NCBI GenBank assembly: GCA_051599415.1
Contig: AP039691.1
Span: 434,001-498,000, forward strand
DNA length: 64,000 bases
Direction of reading: 5' to 3'
Origin: Savitreella phatthalungensis
Taxonomy: Eukaryota
A program made the position numbers and the translations under genes. Within the stretch, counting starts at the first letter, position 1. Every line of letters starts with the position of its first letter. The notes beneath the pieces were generated by a model. That model saw only the letters and a list, made by a program, of their open reading frames with translations, was not told the DNA's origin and did no database searches. Below, piece after piece: positions 31,655-61,735 of this stretch.

Positions 31655-32512
31655 CTAGTATGGTCTTGGAGAAGAGACTCGCTGAGCCATGTCGTAGAGC
31701 TCTGCCTCGTTACTGACGACCGGAGAGGTCGGTGCCAGTGGAGAGGAACGTGTGTAGGACACAGTGCGCGTCTGAGGGAGACCATCGGCACGGATGCTGC
31801 CTCGTGGCTGATATCCTCCAGAGTACTGCATTGGTGCTGCAGATTCCTCGTATCGCATTCTCGGCGTGTACACTGATTCAGAGTATGCGCTGCTCATCGA
31901 TGGCGAACCATCCTTGTAAGCAAAATAGCCAGCCTGACCAGCGGCCCCGTTGCTAGGCCCTGAAGCTGGACTGTACAGTGAGGGTACTGTATCTGAAGGG
32001 GAGGCTGCGGCACGACGAGTGTGCTCCTCGGGCGAGTACGATCCAGACGTTATATTGGTCGATGCTTTCCGCTGGGTATTTGCGCGCACGAAAGTATTGT
32101 TGTCGCTCGAATTTGCGTGAGGCAATCGTTTGCGGCGTGATAGGATATCAGGATCCCGGGCAAGCATCACTTTCGCCTCGCTCAAGTTTACATCGAACCT
32201 GTCGGAAACCTCACGCATTTTACGCTCTTCTTCAAGCTTCTCTGCATCGCGCCGCTCATTCAGCGGGTTGTGTCTCTCGGATGCCTTGAACGGCGTTTCT
32301 GCAGTATAGTTCTCATCCTGGTATTTGCCCCGGTTTTCGTCGCTCGGGATAAAGGAGGCTGCTGTCTGCAGGATGTGTGATCTCCGGCTTTCTAGCTTCT
32401 TCTCCTTCTTCTCTTTAGCGAGCTGCTTGTGGTACTCCTTCTCCTGCTGCTTCAATTCGCGCTCGGCCTCCGACTGACGCATGAAAGAGGATGCGCGACG
32501 AAGGAGCGACAT
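31655..32512 (-). CDS. Hypothetical protein (charged N-terminus, Ser/Pro/Tyr-rich C-terminus)
   Basis: 285-aa ATG-initiated ORF filling a gene-sized gap; no recognised domain. Confidence 0.65.
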   Translation of the reverse strand: MSLLRRASSFMRQSEAERELKQQEKEYHKQLAKEKKEKKLESRRSHILQTAASFIPSDENRGKYQDENYTAETPFKASERHNPLNERRDAEKLEEERKMREVSDRFDVNLSEAKVMLARDPDILSRRKRLPHANSSDNNTFVRANTQRKASTNITSGSYSPEEHTRRAAASPSDTVPSLYSPASGPSNGAAGQAGYFAYKDGSPSMSSAYSESVYTPRMRYEESAAPMQYSGGYQPRGSIRADGLPQTRTVSYTRSSPLAPTSPVVSNEAELYDMAQRVSSPRPY

Positions 32513-33356
32513 GCTGCGATGTTGACGATGAAAGAGCTCCGGTGACTGCGCGAATATGAAGTTGTAATCTAGTGTTAGGTTGTGCTTGGTTCAGAGCTAG
32601 CTTGCTTGGTCCAAACTGGTGGACACGGTAGCGTCGGATGAAGAGATGAGCTGATGGGTCCGTGGCGGAAGGATCCTATTATACGATCGAGTAAGATGGC
32701 ATGTGGCATGTGGGGATCAGAGAAGCTAATAATCCTTACGCGAAGACCGAGGCGAGAGCTCCCTCGTCACTACTTACAAAAGTCTGGGCCCCAGCTCACA
32801 AGATTCCTACGTCGATCAGAGACATTCTGGTCGCTGGCTATACAGACCATCGAGGTCTACACGAGCATCAGTCTACCGTTGGCTTAGTCGCTGCTTGAGC
32901 CCAGAGGCTTGTGAGACATACACGGCAGACAATATAGCGTCTCTGAGCTTGATTGCTTCAATGCGAGGTTTGTCTCACTACCTTGGGCTAGACTTCAGGG
33001 TTGAAGTACCCAGTTGAGCGCTGTCCAGATCCGGTTGCTTCATACACGGTCTGTCAGGACGCTCTGACCTCCTTTTACCCGTTGCACAGACTGTACCCGG
33101 TGGAAATTGGAGCTTTTCATCTTTTCCCATCACAGTCATGAATTTTGGCTGATTCAGGCTGGGTTGTACAGATTGGCTGGCTACTGACACTGGTCAGTGG
33201 GCAGTGCATCCACGCATTTACATCCTGTCCCTAATTTGATTGATGCATGGTTGTCTATTCGAAATAATTCACTTCCAAATCGGGTAATCATAGCCCAAGA
33301 TCTCTCGCATCAAGTTCGATTTTACTAGCGGAGCCGGGAAGAGAAGAGTACCGTAG

Positions 33357-33539
33357 TGTCAACTCATCAGCCACACCAGCCCCATTTTCTCTTCGTAACT
33401 GAACTTTCACTTTCGCTGCCGGTTCAGACTCACTTAAAACATCAGACACCACAGACTAGTTCTGTAGCCTAGTCTCATTCCTTTCCCTTTCCATTCCTCT
33501 CTCACCTGTCTGTGATCGAGCCAGTAACCAGCGCCAACA
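33357..33539 (+). repeat. 5' LTR (183 bp)
   Basis: TGTCAACTC...GCGCCAACA, identical by eye to 38370-38552. Confidence 0.97.
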
Positions 33540-33540
33540 T

Positions 33541-33590
33541 TGGTGGACCAGACAGGAATCGAACCAGCTACCTCCTGCTTGCGATGCAGG
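33541..33590 (-). other. PBS extended into a tRNA-Ala(CGC) fragment (positions 27-76 including CCA)
   Basis: Minus strand reads CCTGC-ATCGCAA-GCAGG-AGGTA-GCTGG-TTCGATT-CCTGT-CTGGTCC-A-CCA; U70 and A73 are Ala identity elements. Confidence 0.9.
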
Positions 33591-33613
33591 GTTAGGGTTA
33601 GGGTTAGGGTTAG
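33588..33613 (+). repeat. Telomeric repeat A(GGGTTA)4G
   Basis: Read directly from the sequence. Confidence 0.95.
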
Positions 33614-35187
33614 TAAATATAGCAGCGCCCGCTCCTCCACCCCCACAGGATCGACAAGGACTCCCTGCAGCCAAAACAGAAGAGTGCTACAACCTCCTTC
33701 CAGAGGGAGTCAAGAAGATCATACAAAAACACGGAACCGGAACAGTCTGTGTCTCTTGCGGAGAGGGTGGTCATCGAGCTCCCGACTGCACAACAAAGGT
33801 TAGATTACCACTTTCCGAACAAGCTGCTCTGAGAGCTTTCCTGAACATCAGGTTCCGTCCTGAGGATTTGCCCGACAACATGCGAACCATATATCAAGCC
33901 AGGTACACAAGACTCTCAAAGCCCACACCAAACCAATACGAATGGCTTTGCGATCAAACCGCAAACACAAGGCACATACGGCTAAAGTCAGAGGCAGAGC
34001 AAAAGTCCGCTAAGGTGATGCAAACTCAGCCTCAAAAGAAACGAGCCAGACAAGGAACTACAGTCGAAACCGAAATATCAGATCCCGACGAACAAGCAGA
34101 CCAAGGAGAAGGAACAGAACGCCGCAAAGCAGACGCAGTCCCAAAAGTCGGCAAGAAACGAGATCTCCAACCCATTAGAGGGAAGATGGGAGAACCTTCG
34201 TTTGACTTGAGAGAGATCCTCCAAACAACAATGGTTTCCCTACCCATGATGGACCTTTTTGCTATATCTCCCAACAGCCGCGCAGAGCTAAGGAGACTGA
34301 TCACGATCGGCAAACCAGGTAAGAAAAAGAAGGTCAAAGTAGTCAGCGTCAAAGCACAGAAGTCTGCCATCACCACGGCAGTACAACCCCCTACAACAGC
34401 CGGTTCTTTCGTCATAACTGCATACGCTTTGAGCAGTGGACGTCAAAGACAAGCATGCCGCACGGTGATCGACGCTGGCTCAGAGATTAATCTCATCACA
34501 AGCGAAACAGTCGCCACGTTGGATCTGAAAACTCAATCGTTAGACAATACGCCTTCGAAGAACTTACACATGCAAACCTCCAGCGGGGAGCGCCAAAGGC
34601 TGGTAGGATGGGTAAACGTGACTTTGGAAATAGCTGGACGACTATTATCGCCGGTATCATTTTATGTGATGGAAGCCAGCAACGCAAAAGTCGATTACGG
34701 CATTCTATTAGGCCTACCATTCCTTTTCGAACACAGAGCACAAATCTCTCTCTCCAGTGGAGCAAAGATGGGCGCAACCCTCAAACATGCTGGGAAGGTC
34801 ATAAAACTGGACGGCCCCAAATACACAACAAACAATCCCATGAAGCTCATTCCCGAAACTGTTCCTTACGACACGGACGAAGATACTGACGACAATTTCT
34901 CTATACAGGATGAGACCAGCGATTCTTCGTACGATAGTGATACAGAGAGCGAAGGATCATTGCCAGAAACAAACATGGCTCACGTACGACAAATAACTGT
35001 CAGGACAGCAGACTCCTCGGCAGAACACCAGTACACTCTGGCTTCGGACTATCAAGAAGACGGCCCATACAAGTTCGTTGCTCATTCGTTAGCCGGAAAA
35101 GATTTCACATTGCTCAATGACTCGGGAAAAGAAGAGAAAGCAGAAGTTTATGTTCTACAGAGCTCGGGAAACGGAAATCAGGAGTAG
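33613..35187 (+). CDS. Truncated gag (zinc knuckle) plus aspartic protease
   Basis: CVSCGEGGHRAPDC (CX2CX4HX4C, from 33748) in frame with VIDAGSEINLI and ILLGLPFL; no capsid domain seen. Confidence 0.85.
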   Translation, partial: VNIAAPAPPPPQDRQGLPAAKTEECYNLLPEGVKKIIQKHGTGTVCVSCGEGGHRAPDCTTKVRLPLSEQAALRAFLNIRFRPEDLPDNMRTIYQARYTRLSKPTPNQYEWLCDQTANTRHIRLKSEAEQKSAKVMQTQPQKKRARQGTTVETEISDPDEQADQGEGTERRKADAVPKVGKKRDLQPIRGKMGEPSFDLREILQTTMVSLPMMDLFAISPNSRAELRRLITIGKPGKKKKVKVVSVKAQKSAITTAVQPPTTAGSFVITAYALSSGRQRQACRTVIDAGSEINLITSETVATLDLKTQSLDNTPSKNLHMQTSSGERQRLVGWVNVTLEIAGRLLSPVSFYVMEASNAKVDYGILLGLPFLFEHRAQISLSSGAKMGATLKHAGKVIKLDGPKYTTNNPMKLIPETVPYDTDEDTDDNFSIQDETSDSSYDSDTESEGSLPETNMAHVRQITVRTADSSAEHQYTLASDYQEDGPYKFVAHSLAGKDFTLLNDSGKEEKAEVYVLQSSGNGNQE

Positions 35188-38100
35188 ACGCAGGCAAGTC
35201 TAACTCCTACCTTTCACCTTCGCCTGAACCAAAACCCACACTCCCGTACGCCACCACTCTTAACGCCTATTTAACGACCCCTACTTCAGACAGAAACTTC
35301 CCAACACAACGCAGGCCATACTATCGAACTCTCTCTCTAGAGTCGCTCCCAAGTCTCCAAGAATTGGAAACTTGGGCACAAACAGTGGGTCTAACGATCG
35401 GTCCGGGAGCACAGACCACAGAACAGCGCCGGCTTGCGATTGGCGCCTTCTGGAACTGGAAGGACCTCCACACAGACAAGGCCACAGTCCCTTTAACGGA
35501 TCTAATCGAATACAAGTTACAACTCAAGGACAATGCTATTCCACACGCGACACCATATCGAAGACGTCTAAGCCCAGAGCAAACCAATTTCTTCTACCAC
35601 ACAGTGATGGATGGGTTGTCTACCAATATGTACGAGCGCATACCGAAGGGAGAGAGCCTCTCCGCTTGGGATGCTCCCCCTGTCATCGTCCTCAAACAAG
35701 ACAAAAAGGAACAACGATTAACCTTCAACTACCAGAACGTCAAGAAGTTCGAGATATTACCGTCAGTTCACCTTCAAAGACTGGATGTTGTGCGTCAGGT
35801 AATCAGTAACCCGAAACACTCCCTCCTAGGTCATGGAGATTTACGATCAGCATACTGGTCGATCGGAGTCGCCCAAGAATCAAGACACATCCTTTCATTT
35901 TTCTGTCCAGGCATCGGACAGGTGAGACCCACAAGGGCACCCCAAGGGGTTGGCGGTTCAGGCCTCGTTCTAGCAGAAGCAGTAAACAGATTGTTCGGGC
36001 CAATACCGCCTCCAGCCGCCGAAACTTCTCTCTTCGGTCCCAACTTCCAGGCATATCAAGACGACTCTTACTGGGCACACAGCAACTTCGAAGAACACCT
36101 GAGCTTCATCCACGACCGGCTACTACCCAGGCTCAAATGGTCCAAATTCCTAACGTCATTCAAGAAATTCTCCGCCTTTATGACACAAATACAAGCCCTA
36201 GGGATTCACCACGAAGCTGGCGGCAAAATTTCCATTTTACCACAGAGGCTTGATAAGTTGCTCAGTTTCCCACCACCTCAAACCGTCTCAGAAGCACAAA
36301 CCTTTTTAGGGATGCTCGGATATTGCCATCCACACTTGAAAAACAGAGAAGAGATATTACGACCCATTCGCCAGGCGTGCCAAACGAAGCGCAGAACAAA
36401 AATGGAAATGCTCGATTGGACACCCGAAATTAGAGAATCATACGACATGATCATCGAACAATTAAAGGAAGCTCCAAAGCTTGACGGATATGACGACGAT
36501 TACCCCACCATAGCTTATACCGACGCTTCGGATCACGCCGGTGGCCTCGTGTTGACCCAAGAAATCAACGGCGAGACTAAACTTCTAGGATTCGACAGTT
36601 TCACCTTCAACACAGCAGAGAGGAACTACGGCGTATTCAAAAGAGAATTGCGAGTCATCATCTATCTTCTTTCCAAATACGCATATCTGTTTAACCGACA
36701 ACAGACCAGCCTGATATACACTGATCACCGGCCTCTGCTCGGTTTTCCTCAGGCCCACAACTTACATGTCGGGATATACGCACGCTGGGCCATCATCCTG
36801 AACGAATTCAACGTGGAATTGAGATACCTCCAAGGGACCCGCAACAGCATAGCTGACGGCCTTTCACGAACAATTTTCCCATCCCAAACGTCGAAAAGGA
36901 AAACTGATGCGATTGAAGACGCACTTTACGCCCTAGATCACGGACCGAAAGCTCGAATGATCCAAGCAGTTTCGTCACCATATCACACAGATCCATGGTA
37001 TTCCGACATTTACCATTACCTGACCACGAAAGAACTCCCCACCCCAATCGCGAACGATCGACAACGAGTCAGAAGATTCAAAGGAGACGCACAAAGATAC
37101 ACGTTAGACGAAACAGGTCACTTATGGAGACGAACCAAGAACAGCGGATCATCTCTTTGCGTCCTCTCCACCGCAGTTCCCTCGATGCTAAAGAGAGTCC
37201 ACGATGATCTCGGCCACTTCTCTTACCAACTGAACTTGAAGGAACTAACTAGACTCAAGGTTTGGTGGCCCACCTTATACTCGGATACCAAAGAATACGC
37301 GCAGACATGCGTCACCTGTTTCGAATACGACAAAGCCCTACCAAAGGCACCTCTTCAGCGCAGCCTACCGTCATTTCCATTTCATCTGCTCGGTATGGAC
37401 TATATCGTGATGCCGAGCGCGACAGTGAAGGAACGACGCTTCACATCAATCCTTCAAATCATTGACTACTTCACTCGACTGGCTATCGCATATCCAAGCC
37501 CCAGCATGAAAGCCTCAGACACCATCCAACATTTGACTGAGTTCCTACGGCACTACCCGAAACCACTACTGATTTATCACGACGCAGGGACACACTTCAC
37601 TGCGCTTGAGACACAAGACTTCCTACGTCGCAAAGACATCCGCACCATCACAGCACCATCAGGATCCTCCCAGGCAGCGGGTATGATTGAAAGAGCAAAC
37701 GGTCTACTGTTAGAAGCACTACGGAAAACAGGCGAAAACAACGGACTCCCGTGGCCGGACAATCTCGATACCGCCATACGGGCTGTGAACACTCGAGAGG
37801 TAGCCCATGGATACTCACCTTATGAACTAGCCTTCGGGCCTCTCAGCCAATTCTTAGACGAACAGGACGCACCAAACACTAACCTGACACGACTCACTTC
37901 CAACGACGACACGAATCTTTCCCACACGCTACTTCACGACGAAATGATAGACGAAGCCTTCAACGAACTCGCCAAGAAACATCCCGGACAGAAGGACCCA
38001 CTTCATCATATAAACGAAGGAGACCTAGTCTGGCTCTACACGCAACCCACAGGGACAAACAGCAAGTTACAAAAACGATGGAGAGGACCTTTCGTCGCCA

Positions 38101-38306
38101 TAAACTGCACTCCACGCACGGCACAGTTATCACAAATTTGGTCTGCGGAAACATTACCTGGAAGATACGCCATTCATGACCTGAAAACGATGACTCAGAG
38201 ACGACCAGCACACCTAGGCTCCTTCCCCATCCTAACAGGCGCGCGCACCCTTAGACCCATCAAAGCAACTTCAGCAAAGAACCTGCTCACAACGCAGCGA
38301 CAATAA
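35166..38306 (+). CDS. Pol (RT-RNase H-integrase), -1 frame
   Basis: GDLRSAYW, YQDD, YTDASD...ERNY...RELR...TDHRPL...ADGLSR, HHCC, D-D-E (MDY/HDAG/IERAN), RWRGPF; frame open from 35121. Confidence 0.93.
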   Translation, partial: GKRKSGVDAGKSNSYLSPSPEPKPTLPYATTLNAYLTTPTSDRNFPTQRRPYYRTLSLESLPSLQELETWAQTVGLTIGPGAQTTEQRRLAIGAFWNWKDLHTDKATVPLTDLIEYKLQLKDNAIPHATPYRRRLSPEQTNFFYHTVMDGLSTNMYERIPKGESLSAWDAPPVIVLKQDKKEQRLTFNYQNVKKFEILPSVHLQRLDVVRQVISNPKHSLLGHGDLRSAYWSIGVAQESRHILSFFCPGIGQVRPTRAPQGVGGSGLVLAEAVNRLFGPIPPPAAETSLFGPNFQAYQDDSYWAHSNFEEHLSFIHDRLLPRLKWSKFLTSFKKFSAFMTQIQALGIHHEAGGKISILPQRLDKLLSFPPPQTVSEAQTFLGMLGYCHPHLKNREEILRPIRQACQTKRRTKMEMLDWTPEIRESYDMIIEQLKEAPKLDGYDDDYPTIAYTDASDHAGGLVLTQEINGETKLLGFDSFTFNTAERNYGVFKRELRVIIYLLSKYAYLFNRQQTSLIYTDHRPLLGFPQAHNLHVGIYARWAIILNEFNVELRYLQGTRNSIADGLSRTIFPSQTSKRKTDAIEDALYALDHGPKARMIQAVSSPYHTDPWYSDIYHYLTTKELPTPIANDRQRVRRFKGDAQRYTLDETGHLWRRTKNSGSSLCVLSTAVPSMLKRVHDDLGHFSYQLNLKELTRLKVWWPTLYSDTKEYAQTCVTCFEYDKALPKAPLQRSLPSFPFHLLGMDYIVMPSATVKERRFTSILQIIDYFTRLAIAYPSPSMKASDTIQHLTEFLRHYPKPLLIYHDAGTHFTALETQDFLRRKDIRTITAPSGSSQAAGMIERANGLLLEALRKTGENNGLPWPDNLDTAIRAVNTREVAHGYSPYELAFGPLSQFLDEQDAPNTNLTRLTSNDDTNLSHTLLHDEMIDEAFNELAKKHPGQKDPLHHINEGDLVWLYTQPTGTNSKLQKRWRGPFVAINCTPRTAQLSQIWSAETLPGRYAIHDLKTMTQRRPAHLGSFPILTGARTLRPIKATSAKNLLTTQRQ

Positions 38307-38355
38307 GCTTTTCCTCACTGTGTGTCACGGATTCAACTCCGGACACCCTCACTTT

Positions 38356-38369
38356 GCGGGTGGGGGCGA
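38356..38369 (+). other. Polypurine tract
   Basis: GCGGGTGGGGGCGA immediately 5' of the 3' LTR. Confidence 0.75.
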
Positions 38370-38552
38370 TGTCAACTCATCAGCCACACCAGCCCCATTT
38401 TCTCTTCGTAACTGAACTTTCACTTTCGCTGCCGGTTCAGACTCACTTAAAACATCAGACACCACAGACTAGTTCTGTAGCCTAGTCTCATTCCTTTCCC
38501 TTTCCATTCCTCTCTCACCTGTCTGTGATCGAGCCAGTAACCAGCGCCAACA
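38370..38552 (+). repeat. 3' LTR (183 bp)
   Basis: Identical to 33357-33539. Confidence 0.97.
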
Positions 38553-38856
38553 GTAGGTACCCAGGTACCTTGGAAAAATGAAAGACCGCTCTAGCAATTT
38601 ACTCACCGAGCCAGCCTCTAAAGTCGTGTGAGTTCAAATGCACGATCAACTTCAAGGTCGCACACGTGATGCAATAGATACAATAGATGCCTCGCTTGAC
38701 TACCGGTATGTCTTGGCAGTATTACACAAATGATCACGCGCCTAGAGCTGGCTTGGACGGTCGATCGAGTCATCCAGACGTATTGCAGAATTGTTCTCAT
38801 TCACGTCTATCGACATGCTTGGTCGTGCGTGGAGATTGCCCTCGTGATACTCTAGA

Positions 38857-61238: not shown

Positions 61239-61735
61239 GAGTGAGGGAGAGTGAGTGAGTGAGAGTGAGGTAGAGTGAGAGTGAGTGGGTGAGTGTGAAG
61301 ATCAAGTGAGAGTGCTCATGAGTGTGAAGATGGTATGATAAGACTATTTAGATCGAATAGAAAAAGTCTCCGGAGTTGGAAATGGAGCCCCACATGTCAT
61401 GTCAGTCTGCTCTCTCTCTCACTCAACCTTGGCAATCATTCATTCATTCATTCGATCAGGCATTGATTCGATTGATTAATCATGCACTAATTATTCATTG
61501 ATGCGTTTACAGTACAGCCTCGCGTCTTTTCTTTTGACTCTCTCAATCATTCTACTCAAAATTCATTAATCGAACGATCGAACTGATTGGATGATCGGAT
61601 GAATTAGTGCAGGCGAGTCTATCTGCATTGATAGGTCATGCATCTTATTCAATCGATTCACTCATCCACTCACTCACTCACAGTCACTCACATACATACC
61701 CTGACACTCACTCACTCACTCACTCACCTACTCAC
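61239..61735. repeat. (GAGT)n, (CATT)n and (ACTC)n microsatellite tracts
   Basis: GAGT-rich 61239-61324; ACTC-rich about 61658-61735. Confidence 0.8.

Follow-up and report, generated by a model that had tools for sequence, protein, structure and literature searches.

A defective Ty3/gypsy retrotransposon copy of Savitreella phatthalungensis carrying a tRNA-Ala complement and telomere-type repeats at the edge of a gag deletion

A stretch of 64,000 nucleotides (nt) from the genome of Savitreella phatthalungensis (contig AP039691.1 of assembly GCA_051599415.1, positions 434,001 to 498,000; hereafter the window, in whose own numbering all positions are given) contains one long terminal repeat (LTR) retrotransposon of the Ty3/gypsy type, the sole such element in the window. 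It occupies 33357-38552 (5,196 bp), and all its parts lie on the + strand. Between its 5' LTR and a truncated gag gene stand 50 nt that are complementary to a tRNA, followed in register by perfect repeats of the telomeric type. The question raised by this locus is how a tRNA complement of that length and telomeric repeats came to lie at the edge of a deletion in an element that integrated normally. The answer proposed here is that the element is a one-off defective copy that arose from an error of plus-strand synthesis. The core of this proposal, read-through of the tRNA primer by reverse transcriptase (RT) and aberrant transfer of the resulting end, is held with considerable confidence, and the complete chain of events, in which the repeats were added by telomerase, is an evenly balanced proposition.

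The leader of the element starts after a single T (33540) that separates it from the 5' LTR. Positions 33541-33590 are the reverse complement, exact and gapless, of the 50 nt at the 3' end of a tRNA, from position 76 to position 27. The first 18 nt (33541-33558, tRNA positions 76-59, CCA included) form a canonical primer-binding site (PBS), and the other 32 nt (33559-33590, positions 58-27) form a read-through part that comprises the remainder of the T arm, the variable loop and the full anticodon arm. The CCA end (complement at 33541-33543), A73 and the 3' acceptor strand with U70, the partner of G3, could all be recognized, together with a T arm containing TTCGATT in its loop and a single U51:U63 mismatch, a variable loop of 5 nt, and an anticodon arm with a perfect 5-bp stem and the anticodon CGC. 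The tRNA was assigned to alanine because of the anticodon CGC, A73 and U70, by which tRNA-Ala is recognized according to textbook identity rules. With the query cut off at 33590, the Rfam tRNA model matched with 24.9 bits (E = 7.6e-4) over model positions 26-71, and the match was flagged as 5'-truncated; the score does not reach the gathering threshold of 29 of the family, which is no surprise for a sequence comprising two thirds of a tRNA. The match was obtained only with this cut: Rfam gave no tRNA match over the 501 nt from 33300 to 33800, and ARAGORN found 0 whole tRNA genes in the window. A 50-nt complement of a CCA-ended tRNA-Ala(CGC) one nucleotide past the 5' LTR, as claimed in an earlier note on this DNA, is thus confirmed by the sequence and by Rfam. 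The same note placed the end of the tRNA copy exactly at position 27. The end indeed lies near there, but not with that exactness: the AGG at 33588-33590 fits both the tRNA complement and the register of the repeats, and therefore the end of the tRNA copy falls between positions 30 and 27.

Directly after the tRNA complement follow 23 nt of telomeric repeat in the G-strand orientation (33591-33613), corresponding to 3.8 units. Including the in-register AGG, the tract measures 26 nt and holds four GGG runs. The repeats are perfect and of the TTAGGG type, and they continue the upstream 3' end with 3 bases in register, so that the in-register telomere repeats described earlier after the AGG were found as such. 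The 12-mer TTAGGGTTAGGG occurs twice, both times within the tract, where 0.00 occurrences were expected from 100 shuffles of the window. The tract is the sole such site in the window (0 expected); neither a second telomeric tract nor a further copy of the LTR was found in these 64 kb. Both edges of the tract are without evident subtelomeric or other foreign bases. The orientation of the repeats and the 3-nt register fit priming by telomerase as far as the sequence can indicate it, and telomerase is most likely the maker of the repeats. Apart from their origin, the four GGG runs are spaced by TTA at 33589-33609, and such a pattern may fold as a G-quadruplex in DNA or in an RNA leader.

The junctions were followed in contigs of two sequencing runs, X1 and X2, which carry 99% of the sampled words and come from one sample, possibly the assembly's own source. 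A third run with the same organism label, X3, carries next to none of these words and gave no coverage of the locus, which does not count as a sign that the locus is absent there; no RNA run was listed among those that contain the locus. The comparison covered the region 32500-38369. In X1, LTR and PBS are bridged by a contig of 64 nt (33510-33573, depth 50), and a single contig extends from 33550 to beyond 38369 with 0 differences and a depth of 45.1, compared to a depth of 45.3 for the flank contig; X2 gives the same pieces. The 26-nt tract is crossed by single contigs that reach unique sequence on both sides, and therefore the junctions were read and not assembled by inference. The assembly chimera that the earlier note had considered was not encountered, as all junctions are bridged in X1 and X2 at single-copy depth. 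In X2, adjoining single-copy parts differ in depth by a factor of about ten (2,398 for the left flank, 87 for the bridge of LTR and PBS, 261 for the internal part and 2,219 for 38133-38369), and in X1, from the same sample, all depths are ~45; X2 may be something other than a plain genomic DNA library.

With a depth close to that of the flank in X1, the internal part of the element is single-copy, and according to the contigs of X1 and X2 the genome contains neither another copy of the leader nor a full-length parent. A propagating family with drift over several replication cycles, which had been suggested for this element, is not supported by the internal part, which forms one unbroken contig at single-copy depth. 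The LTR does occur in extra genomic copies. Its contig has a depth of 111, and extra LTR flanks appear as loose ends, with one further left flank and further right flanks. One extra LTR-like piece has 2 differences over 45 nt, and two more have 16-18 differences and 3 gaps over ~100-130 nt (~80-85% alike); no PBS follows any of these extra pieces. At least one of the extra LTRs is near-identical and has different flanks. The pieces probably represent solo LTRs or leftovers, either of this family or of a sister one, and one of them may stem from the parent element.

The contigs also shed light on the source of the tRNA copy. In both X1 and X2 another contig meets the leader at the complement of A73 (33544), and it carries a run of 9-10 A before this position and no CCA. 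On the tRNA strand this corresponds to a T-run right after the discriminator base, which looks like a terminator of RNA polymerase III. The contig ends (33573 and the starts at 33544 and 33550) overlap by 30 nt, as do other adjoining contigs, and imply a second genomic locus that shares 33544-33579 exactly (36 nt, tRNA positions 73-38); no differences are listed in this stretch. The shared piece extends no further than the 37|38 boundary. Positions 37/38 are the canonical intron site of eukaryotic tRNAs, and from the contig boundaries the host gene would have either an intron at 37|38 or a difference at position 37. That a mature tRNA was copied into the leader is indicated by the CCA and by the absence of any break at 37|38, where the matching genomic locus diverges. 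If the reading of the contig ends holds, the source was a CCA-tailed tRNA, which would also have been spliced if the gene has an intron at 37|38. A copy taken from a neighbouring tRNA gene was considered and rejected on the same two observations. Also rejected was the suggestion that A48 and U51:U63 are RT errors, since both lie within 33544-33579, the stretch shared with the second genomic locus, and look native to the host gene. The exact 36-nt tRNA stretch gave 0 matches in metagenome_contigs.

On its downstream side the tract abuts an N-terminally truncated gag-protease frame (33614-35187), which from stop to stop comprises 575 codons (33460-35187). No in-frame ATG precedes its CCHC zinc knuckle (33748-33789). 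A word-index search with the gag-protease protein gave no match at E <= 0.001 among 8,000 candidates; an exhaustive and profile-free search with the 525 residues that follow the repeat identified 93 proteins at E <= 0.001. The best matches other than the element itself were P0046 (848 amino acids (aa), 37% identity) and P0047 (820 aa, 32%), which align from their residues 290 and 255 on, respectively. Alignment was performed for four of the 93 matches, namely these two and the shorter relatives P0066 and P0117. All four have 230-290 extra N-terminal residues that start with Met, and their conserved N-terminal domain is without a counterpart in the element. Homology begins at the motif DRQGLPAAK, near 33649, and the Gly-Leu run encoded by the repeats is found in none of the four. 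Weak Retrotrans_gag matches below the cut-off were observed in the N-terminal part of P0046 and P0050, two of the four relatives scanned (P0046 was also among those aligned). Judged against the relatives' proteins, and not against parental DNA, both the leader and the stretch of gag that codes for the capsid are absent, and the block of tRNA complement and repeats sits exactly at the deletion. Pattern scans for the DNA of related elements gave 4 matches in viral_contigs, 210 in metagenome_contigs and 40 in genome_contigs, of which 0 were confirmed in each set. As the copy has neither a gag start codon nor a capsid domain, it cannot transpose on its own, and by its predicted proteins it is a defective member of Ty3/gypsy with an incomplete gag.

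The ends of the element are regular. The 5' LTR (33357-33539) and the 3' LTR (38370-38552) are both 183 nt long and begin and end with TG...CA, and a repeat search showed that they are 100% identical over this length. They are flanked by a target-site duplication, GTAG (33353-33356 and 38553-38556). Identical LTRs and a target-site duplication had been reported before for this locus; the size of the duplication can now be specified as 4 bp. Direct LTRs with a target-site duplication, a PBS just inside the 5' LTR and a purine tract before the 3' LTR are all in place, as in other Ty3/gypsy elements; the last of these, recognized by eye, is a purine-rich and G-rich stretch resembling a polypurine tract (PPT) that abuts the 3' LTR at 38356-38369. 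The LTRs and the duplication demonstrate that integration was normal.

These observations can be combined into one course of events. Plus-strand strong-stop DNA, primed at the PPT, would have copied U3-R-U5 and then the attached tRNA-Ala(CGC) primer. Synthesis would have passed the usual 18-nt stop, continued through A58 and A37, and ended at position 27 or shortly before it. Where the tRNA copy ends can be read directly from the sequence; the stop itself may have been caused by a block at position 26, probably N2,N2-dimethylguanosine (m2,2G), a modification that blocks RTs, or by the 5' end of a cleaved primer. Removal of the tRNA by RNase H would have left a G-ended 3' overhang (...GCAGG) mismatched to the minus strand. 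Telomerase may then have aligned on the AGG and added 23 nt, i.e. 3.8 TTAGGG repeats, to this overhang. The extended end would have joined, or primed on, the minus strand at the proline-rich linker that gag has ahead of its zinc knuckle, and this internal joining would have looped out the leader together with the part of gag that codes for the capsid. The minus strand would have finished the 5' LTR normally, and integrase would have inserted the two-LTR molecule; integration could be normal because integrase needs only two LTR ends. The minus-strand loop, containing the leader and 5' gag, may have been lost at the next replication or by repair, which would have fixed the plus-strand version.

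An account of read-through, telomerase extension and re-priming within gag was already given in the earlier note. Its core stands, as the copied mature tRNA directly continues the PBS and lies at the deletion edge; its telomerase part agrees with the register and the orientation of the repeats. A more specific version, in which a tRNA-Ala unmethylated at A58 was read through to m2,2G26, telomerase extended the cDNA (complementary DNA) overhang and the healed end then integrated, is advanced tentatively and with somewhat less confidence than the chain as a whole. Budding-yeast tRNA-Ala may be without 1-methyladenosine at position 58 (m1A58).

The read-through part has a published precedent in HIV-1 (human immunodeficiency virus type 1). 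In deferred second-strand transfer, RT copies tRNA(Lys-3) past the PBS and then transfers downstream on the minus strand (Hardy et al., Commun Biol 2025, PMC12657518). According to the available text of that report, HIV-1 proviruses carry tRNA inserts of 7-54 nt at the deletion junction with intact LTRs, as found in one sequence of the authors and 43 GenBank sequences from 9 studies. The element studied here resembles these proviruses in having an intact 5' LTR and PBS followed by an unbroken extra tRNA complement, of 32 nt, in which positions 76-27 continue in register. In both cases the tRNA insert forms the 5' edge of a large internal deletion, and the product is integrated and defective. 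Copying from the mature primer is likewise indicated, directly by the CCA and indirectly, from the contig ends, by the continuity across 37|38. The two systems differ in that the element is a fungal Ty3/gypsy retrotransposon with tRNA-Ala and not a lentivirus with tRNA-Lys3, and in that its read-through ends beside position 26. Furthermore, the tRNA insert is not joined directly to the element sequence, as 23 nt of telomeric filler intervene, and the available text on HIV-1 mentions no such filler. Retro-copied tRNA-Gly has also been described beside deleted HIV proviruses, in what is available of PMC12220202.

How far plus-strand strong-stop DNA extends into the primer depends in HIV-1 on tRNA modifications. 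As described in the available part of PMC8599865, m1A58 and, as a second stop, 5-methyl-2'-O-methyluridine at position 54 (m5Um54) limit this DNA, and without a stop in the tRNA the plus strand runs on and loses complementarity to the minus strand. In the element, too, tRNA modifications would set the end of plus-strand strong-stop DNA, with the difference that the published system is an experimental one with HIV-1 and tRNA-Lys3, whereas here the missed and the hit stops are inferred from one fossil copy. The m2,2G26 modification is present in 127 of the 160 eukaryotic cytosolic tRNAs with an encoded G26, as given in the available part of PMC10275265.

The repeats themselves resemble insertions left by telomerase during break repair. 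At interstitial repeats made by telomerase, bases in register with the 3' end were found at 31 of 40 loci and deletions were frequent, according to the accessible text of PMC7215372. The element shares with such insertions the small number of perfect TTAGGG units in which the G-strand continues a 3' end (PMC7215372, PMC2246262, PMC8537989, each as far as available), and also the in-register junction bases, 3 in number here, and the accompanying deletion (PMC7215372). In those cases the insertions were at vertebrate chromosomal breaks and were checked against empty orthologous loci, whereas the element was compared with no empty or ancestral allele; moreover, the end that was extended is here most simply taken as the 3' end of a replication intermediate of the retrotransposon, in contrast to the chromosomal breaks studied there. 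In a literature search that left subscription journals mostly uncovered, no telomeric repeats were found at a tRNA read-through junction or on retroelement cDNA. The telomeric filler is the new part of the locus, and the telomerase step that would explain it is plausible.

For the repeat type of the host, the genes in the window are informative. The window is gene-dense and contains fungal housekeeping genes, among them those for Tsr1, Noc3, BCS1 and a mitochondrial ATPase-expression factor. Compared with the Tsr1 of Taphrina deformans, the one encoded here shows 51% identity, and with those of named Pezizomycotina it reaches at most 37%. Because of this pattern the host is placed, by sequence comparison, in the Taphrinomycotina, distant from the named genomes among the matches listed. 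According to a review, telomeres of the TTAGGG type are present in Taphrina, Pneumocystis and Saitoella, in contrast to fission yeasts (PMC7857110, available part).

Several points weigh against the proposed course of events. The TTAGGG repeat is taken for the host from these relatives and not from its own chromosome ends, and sequence alone cannot separate telomerase activity from copying of a C-rich telomeric template. The AGG overlap leaves an ambiguity of 3 nt in the tRNA end; the leader displays tRNA positions 76-27, and position 26 of the host tRNA is an inference. The reasoning on the host tRNA gene rests on contig boundaries and a loose end, not on the letters of that contig, and X1 and X2, being one sample and perhaps the assembly source, give non-independent support. 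This is a single locus that records a single event, with no parent element to compare, and as the relatives were compared by protein and not by DNA, a native long tRNA-complementary leader keeps a place among the explanations. Finally, telomerase is nuclear and reverse transcription is classically particle-bound, so that access of the enzyme to the cDNA is assumed.

The same read-through might have been followed by a switch of template. RT or a host polymerase would then have moved at position 26, via the AGG, onto telomeric nucleic acid, copied ~23 nt from C-rich telomeric RNA or from the telomere C-strand, and switched a second time into gag. Retroviral RTs are known to switch at strong stops, and the 3-nt overlap suits microhomology-guided switching equally as well as alignment by telomerase. 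Such a course would, however, require a long C-rich telomeric template in or beside the replication complex; the template of telomerase RNA, with ~1.5 repeats, would be too short for 3.8 units without translocation of the telomerase type, and the two ends of the tract show no evident subtelomeric or other foreign bases. Templated insertions at DNA ends are documented in yeast, as described in the available part of PMC11724301. Overall, template switching is regarded as unlikely.

No better founded, and unlikely to the same extent, is a scar that was formed after integration. In that case a break near the PBS would have been followed by extension of the 3' end, possibly on an annealed tRNA-Ala, by addition of repeats by telomerase and by joining to resected gag. 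Short TTAGGG insertions at repaired breaks, with in-register bases and deletions, are described in the available parts of PMC7215372 and PMC2246262, and the orientation of the repeats would suit extension of the left-hand 3' end. The 183 identical LTR bases date the insertion only loosely, and for the sole internal copy in the genome a separate parent would be unnecessary. The break would nevertheless have to hit the PBS, and the extension would have to copy the tRNA in perfect register from the CCA to position 27. If instead the repeats were added in a second event at the junction of an earlier read-through deletion, this event would have had to fall exactly there, at roughly one of 5,000 positions. 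By comparison, reading through the primer is intrinsic to replication, with 44 proviral examples (PMC12657518, available text), and tRNA-templated chromosomal repair at a PBS was not found in the literature examined.

Far less probable than either of these is a native leader, i.e. a family that normally carries a long tRNA-complementary leader, perhaps with telomere-like repeats, of which this copy would be a gag-deleted derivative. The scans for relatives' DNA yielded nothing confirmed that could be set against it, and a tRNA-Ala without m1A58, as may be the case in budding yeast, might allow or even demand a longer match. However, the tract abuts a truncated gag without a start codon, the Gag N-termini of the relatives are complete and contain no repeat-encoded residues, and the genome has no second copy of the leader; in addition, complementarity over 50 nt that ends at a known RT-blocking position is what an accident of synthesis predicts. 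An assembly or sequencing artefact that joined the LTR, a tRNA read and a telomeric read, for which the common sample of the two runs and its possible use in the assembly might speak, is practically negligible, given that unbroken contigs pass the tRNA, repeat and gag junctions in X1 with 0 differences and at 45.1 against 45.3, and in X2 alike, that a tract of 26 nt is short enough for single contigs to pass through, and that the tRNA copy begins at the exact place and in the orientation of a PBS.

If the tRNA primer was read through and the end transferred aberrantly, deferred second-strand transfer, which has until now been described for HIV-1, would also include a fungal Ty3/gypsy element, and errors of this kind would then concern tRNA-primed retroelements in general. 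The end of the copy near position 26 suggests that modifications in the tRNA body other than m1A58 can limit plus-strand strong-stop DNA. The telomeric filler suggests that the end of a retroelement cDNA can be handled like a broken chromosome end, which bears on the exclusion of telomerase from non-telomeric 3' ends and on the origin of interstitial telomeric repeats. If the telomerase step is true, the locus is a natural record of telomerase acting on retroelement cDNA, and interstitial telomeric repeats can arise without a chromosomal break. Retrotransposition assays in yeast offer a direct test of this idea; being one fossil locus, the element provides a lead rather than a system.

A protease is indicated at ~34453-34722 by two weak aspartyl-protease Pfam matches (22.7 and 20.6 bits), both under the cut-offs. 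The pol frame (35121-38306) is open over 1,061 codons and contains RT, RNase H, an integrase zinc domain and an integrase core, all above the Pfam cut-offs, so that protease - RT - RNase H - integrase follow one another as in Ty3/gypsy elements. The proteins closest to pol, P0001 (1,030 aa, 49% identity) and P0002 (1,061 aa, 47%), are of similar length. Relative to gag-protease, pol lies in the -1 frame, with an overlap of 67 nt (35121-35187) that contains two heptamers of the slippery type, GGGAAAA at 35124-35130 and GGGAAAC at 35166-35172. The latter is a candidate -1 frameshift site, as heptamers like GGGAAAC presumably promote such frameshifting. The overlapping frames and the two heptamers suggest that pol is expressed by -1 frameshifting.

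A predicted public protein, P0045 (139 aa), is 100% identical to residues 387-525 of gag-protease (34768-35184) and appears to be a fragment of the retrotransposon that was called as a gene. Elsewhere in the window, at 61246-61728, an imperfect inverted repeat of the GAGTGA type was observed, with arms of 31-47 nt that are 70-77% complementary and lie ~400 nt apart.

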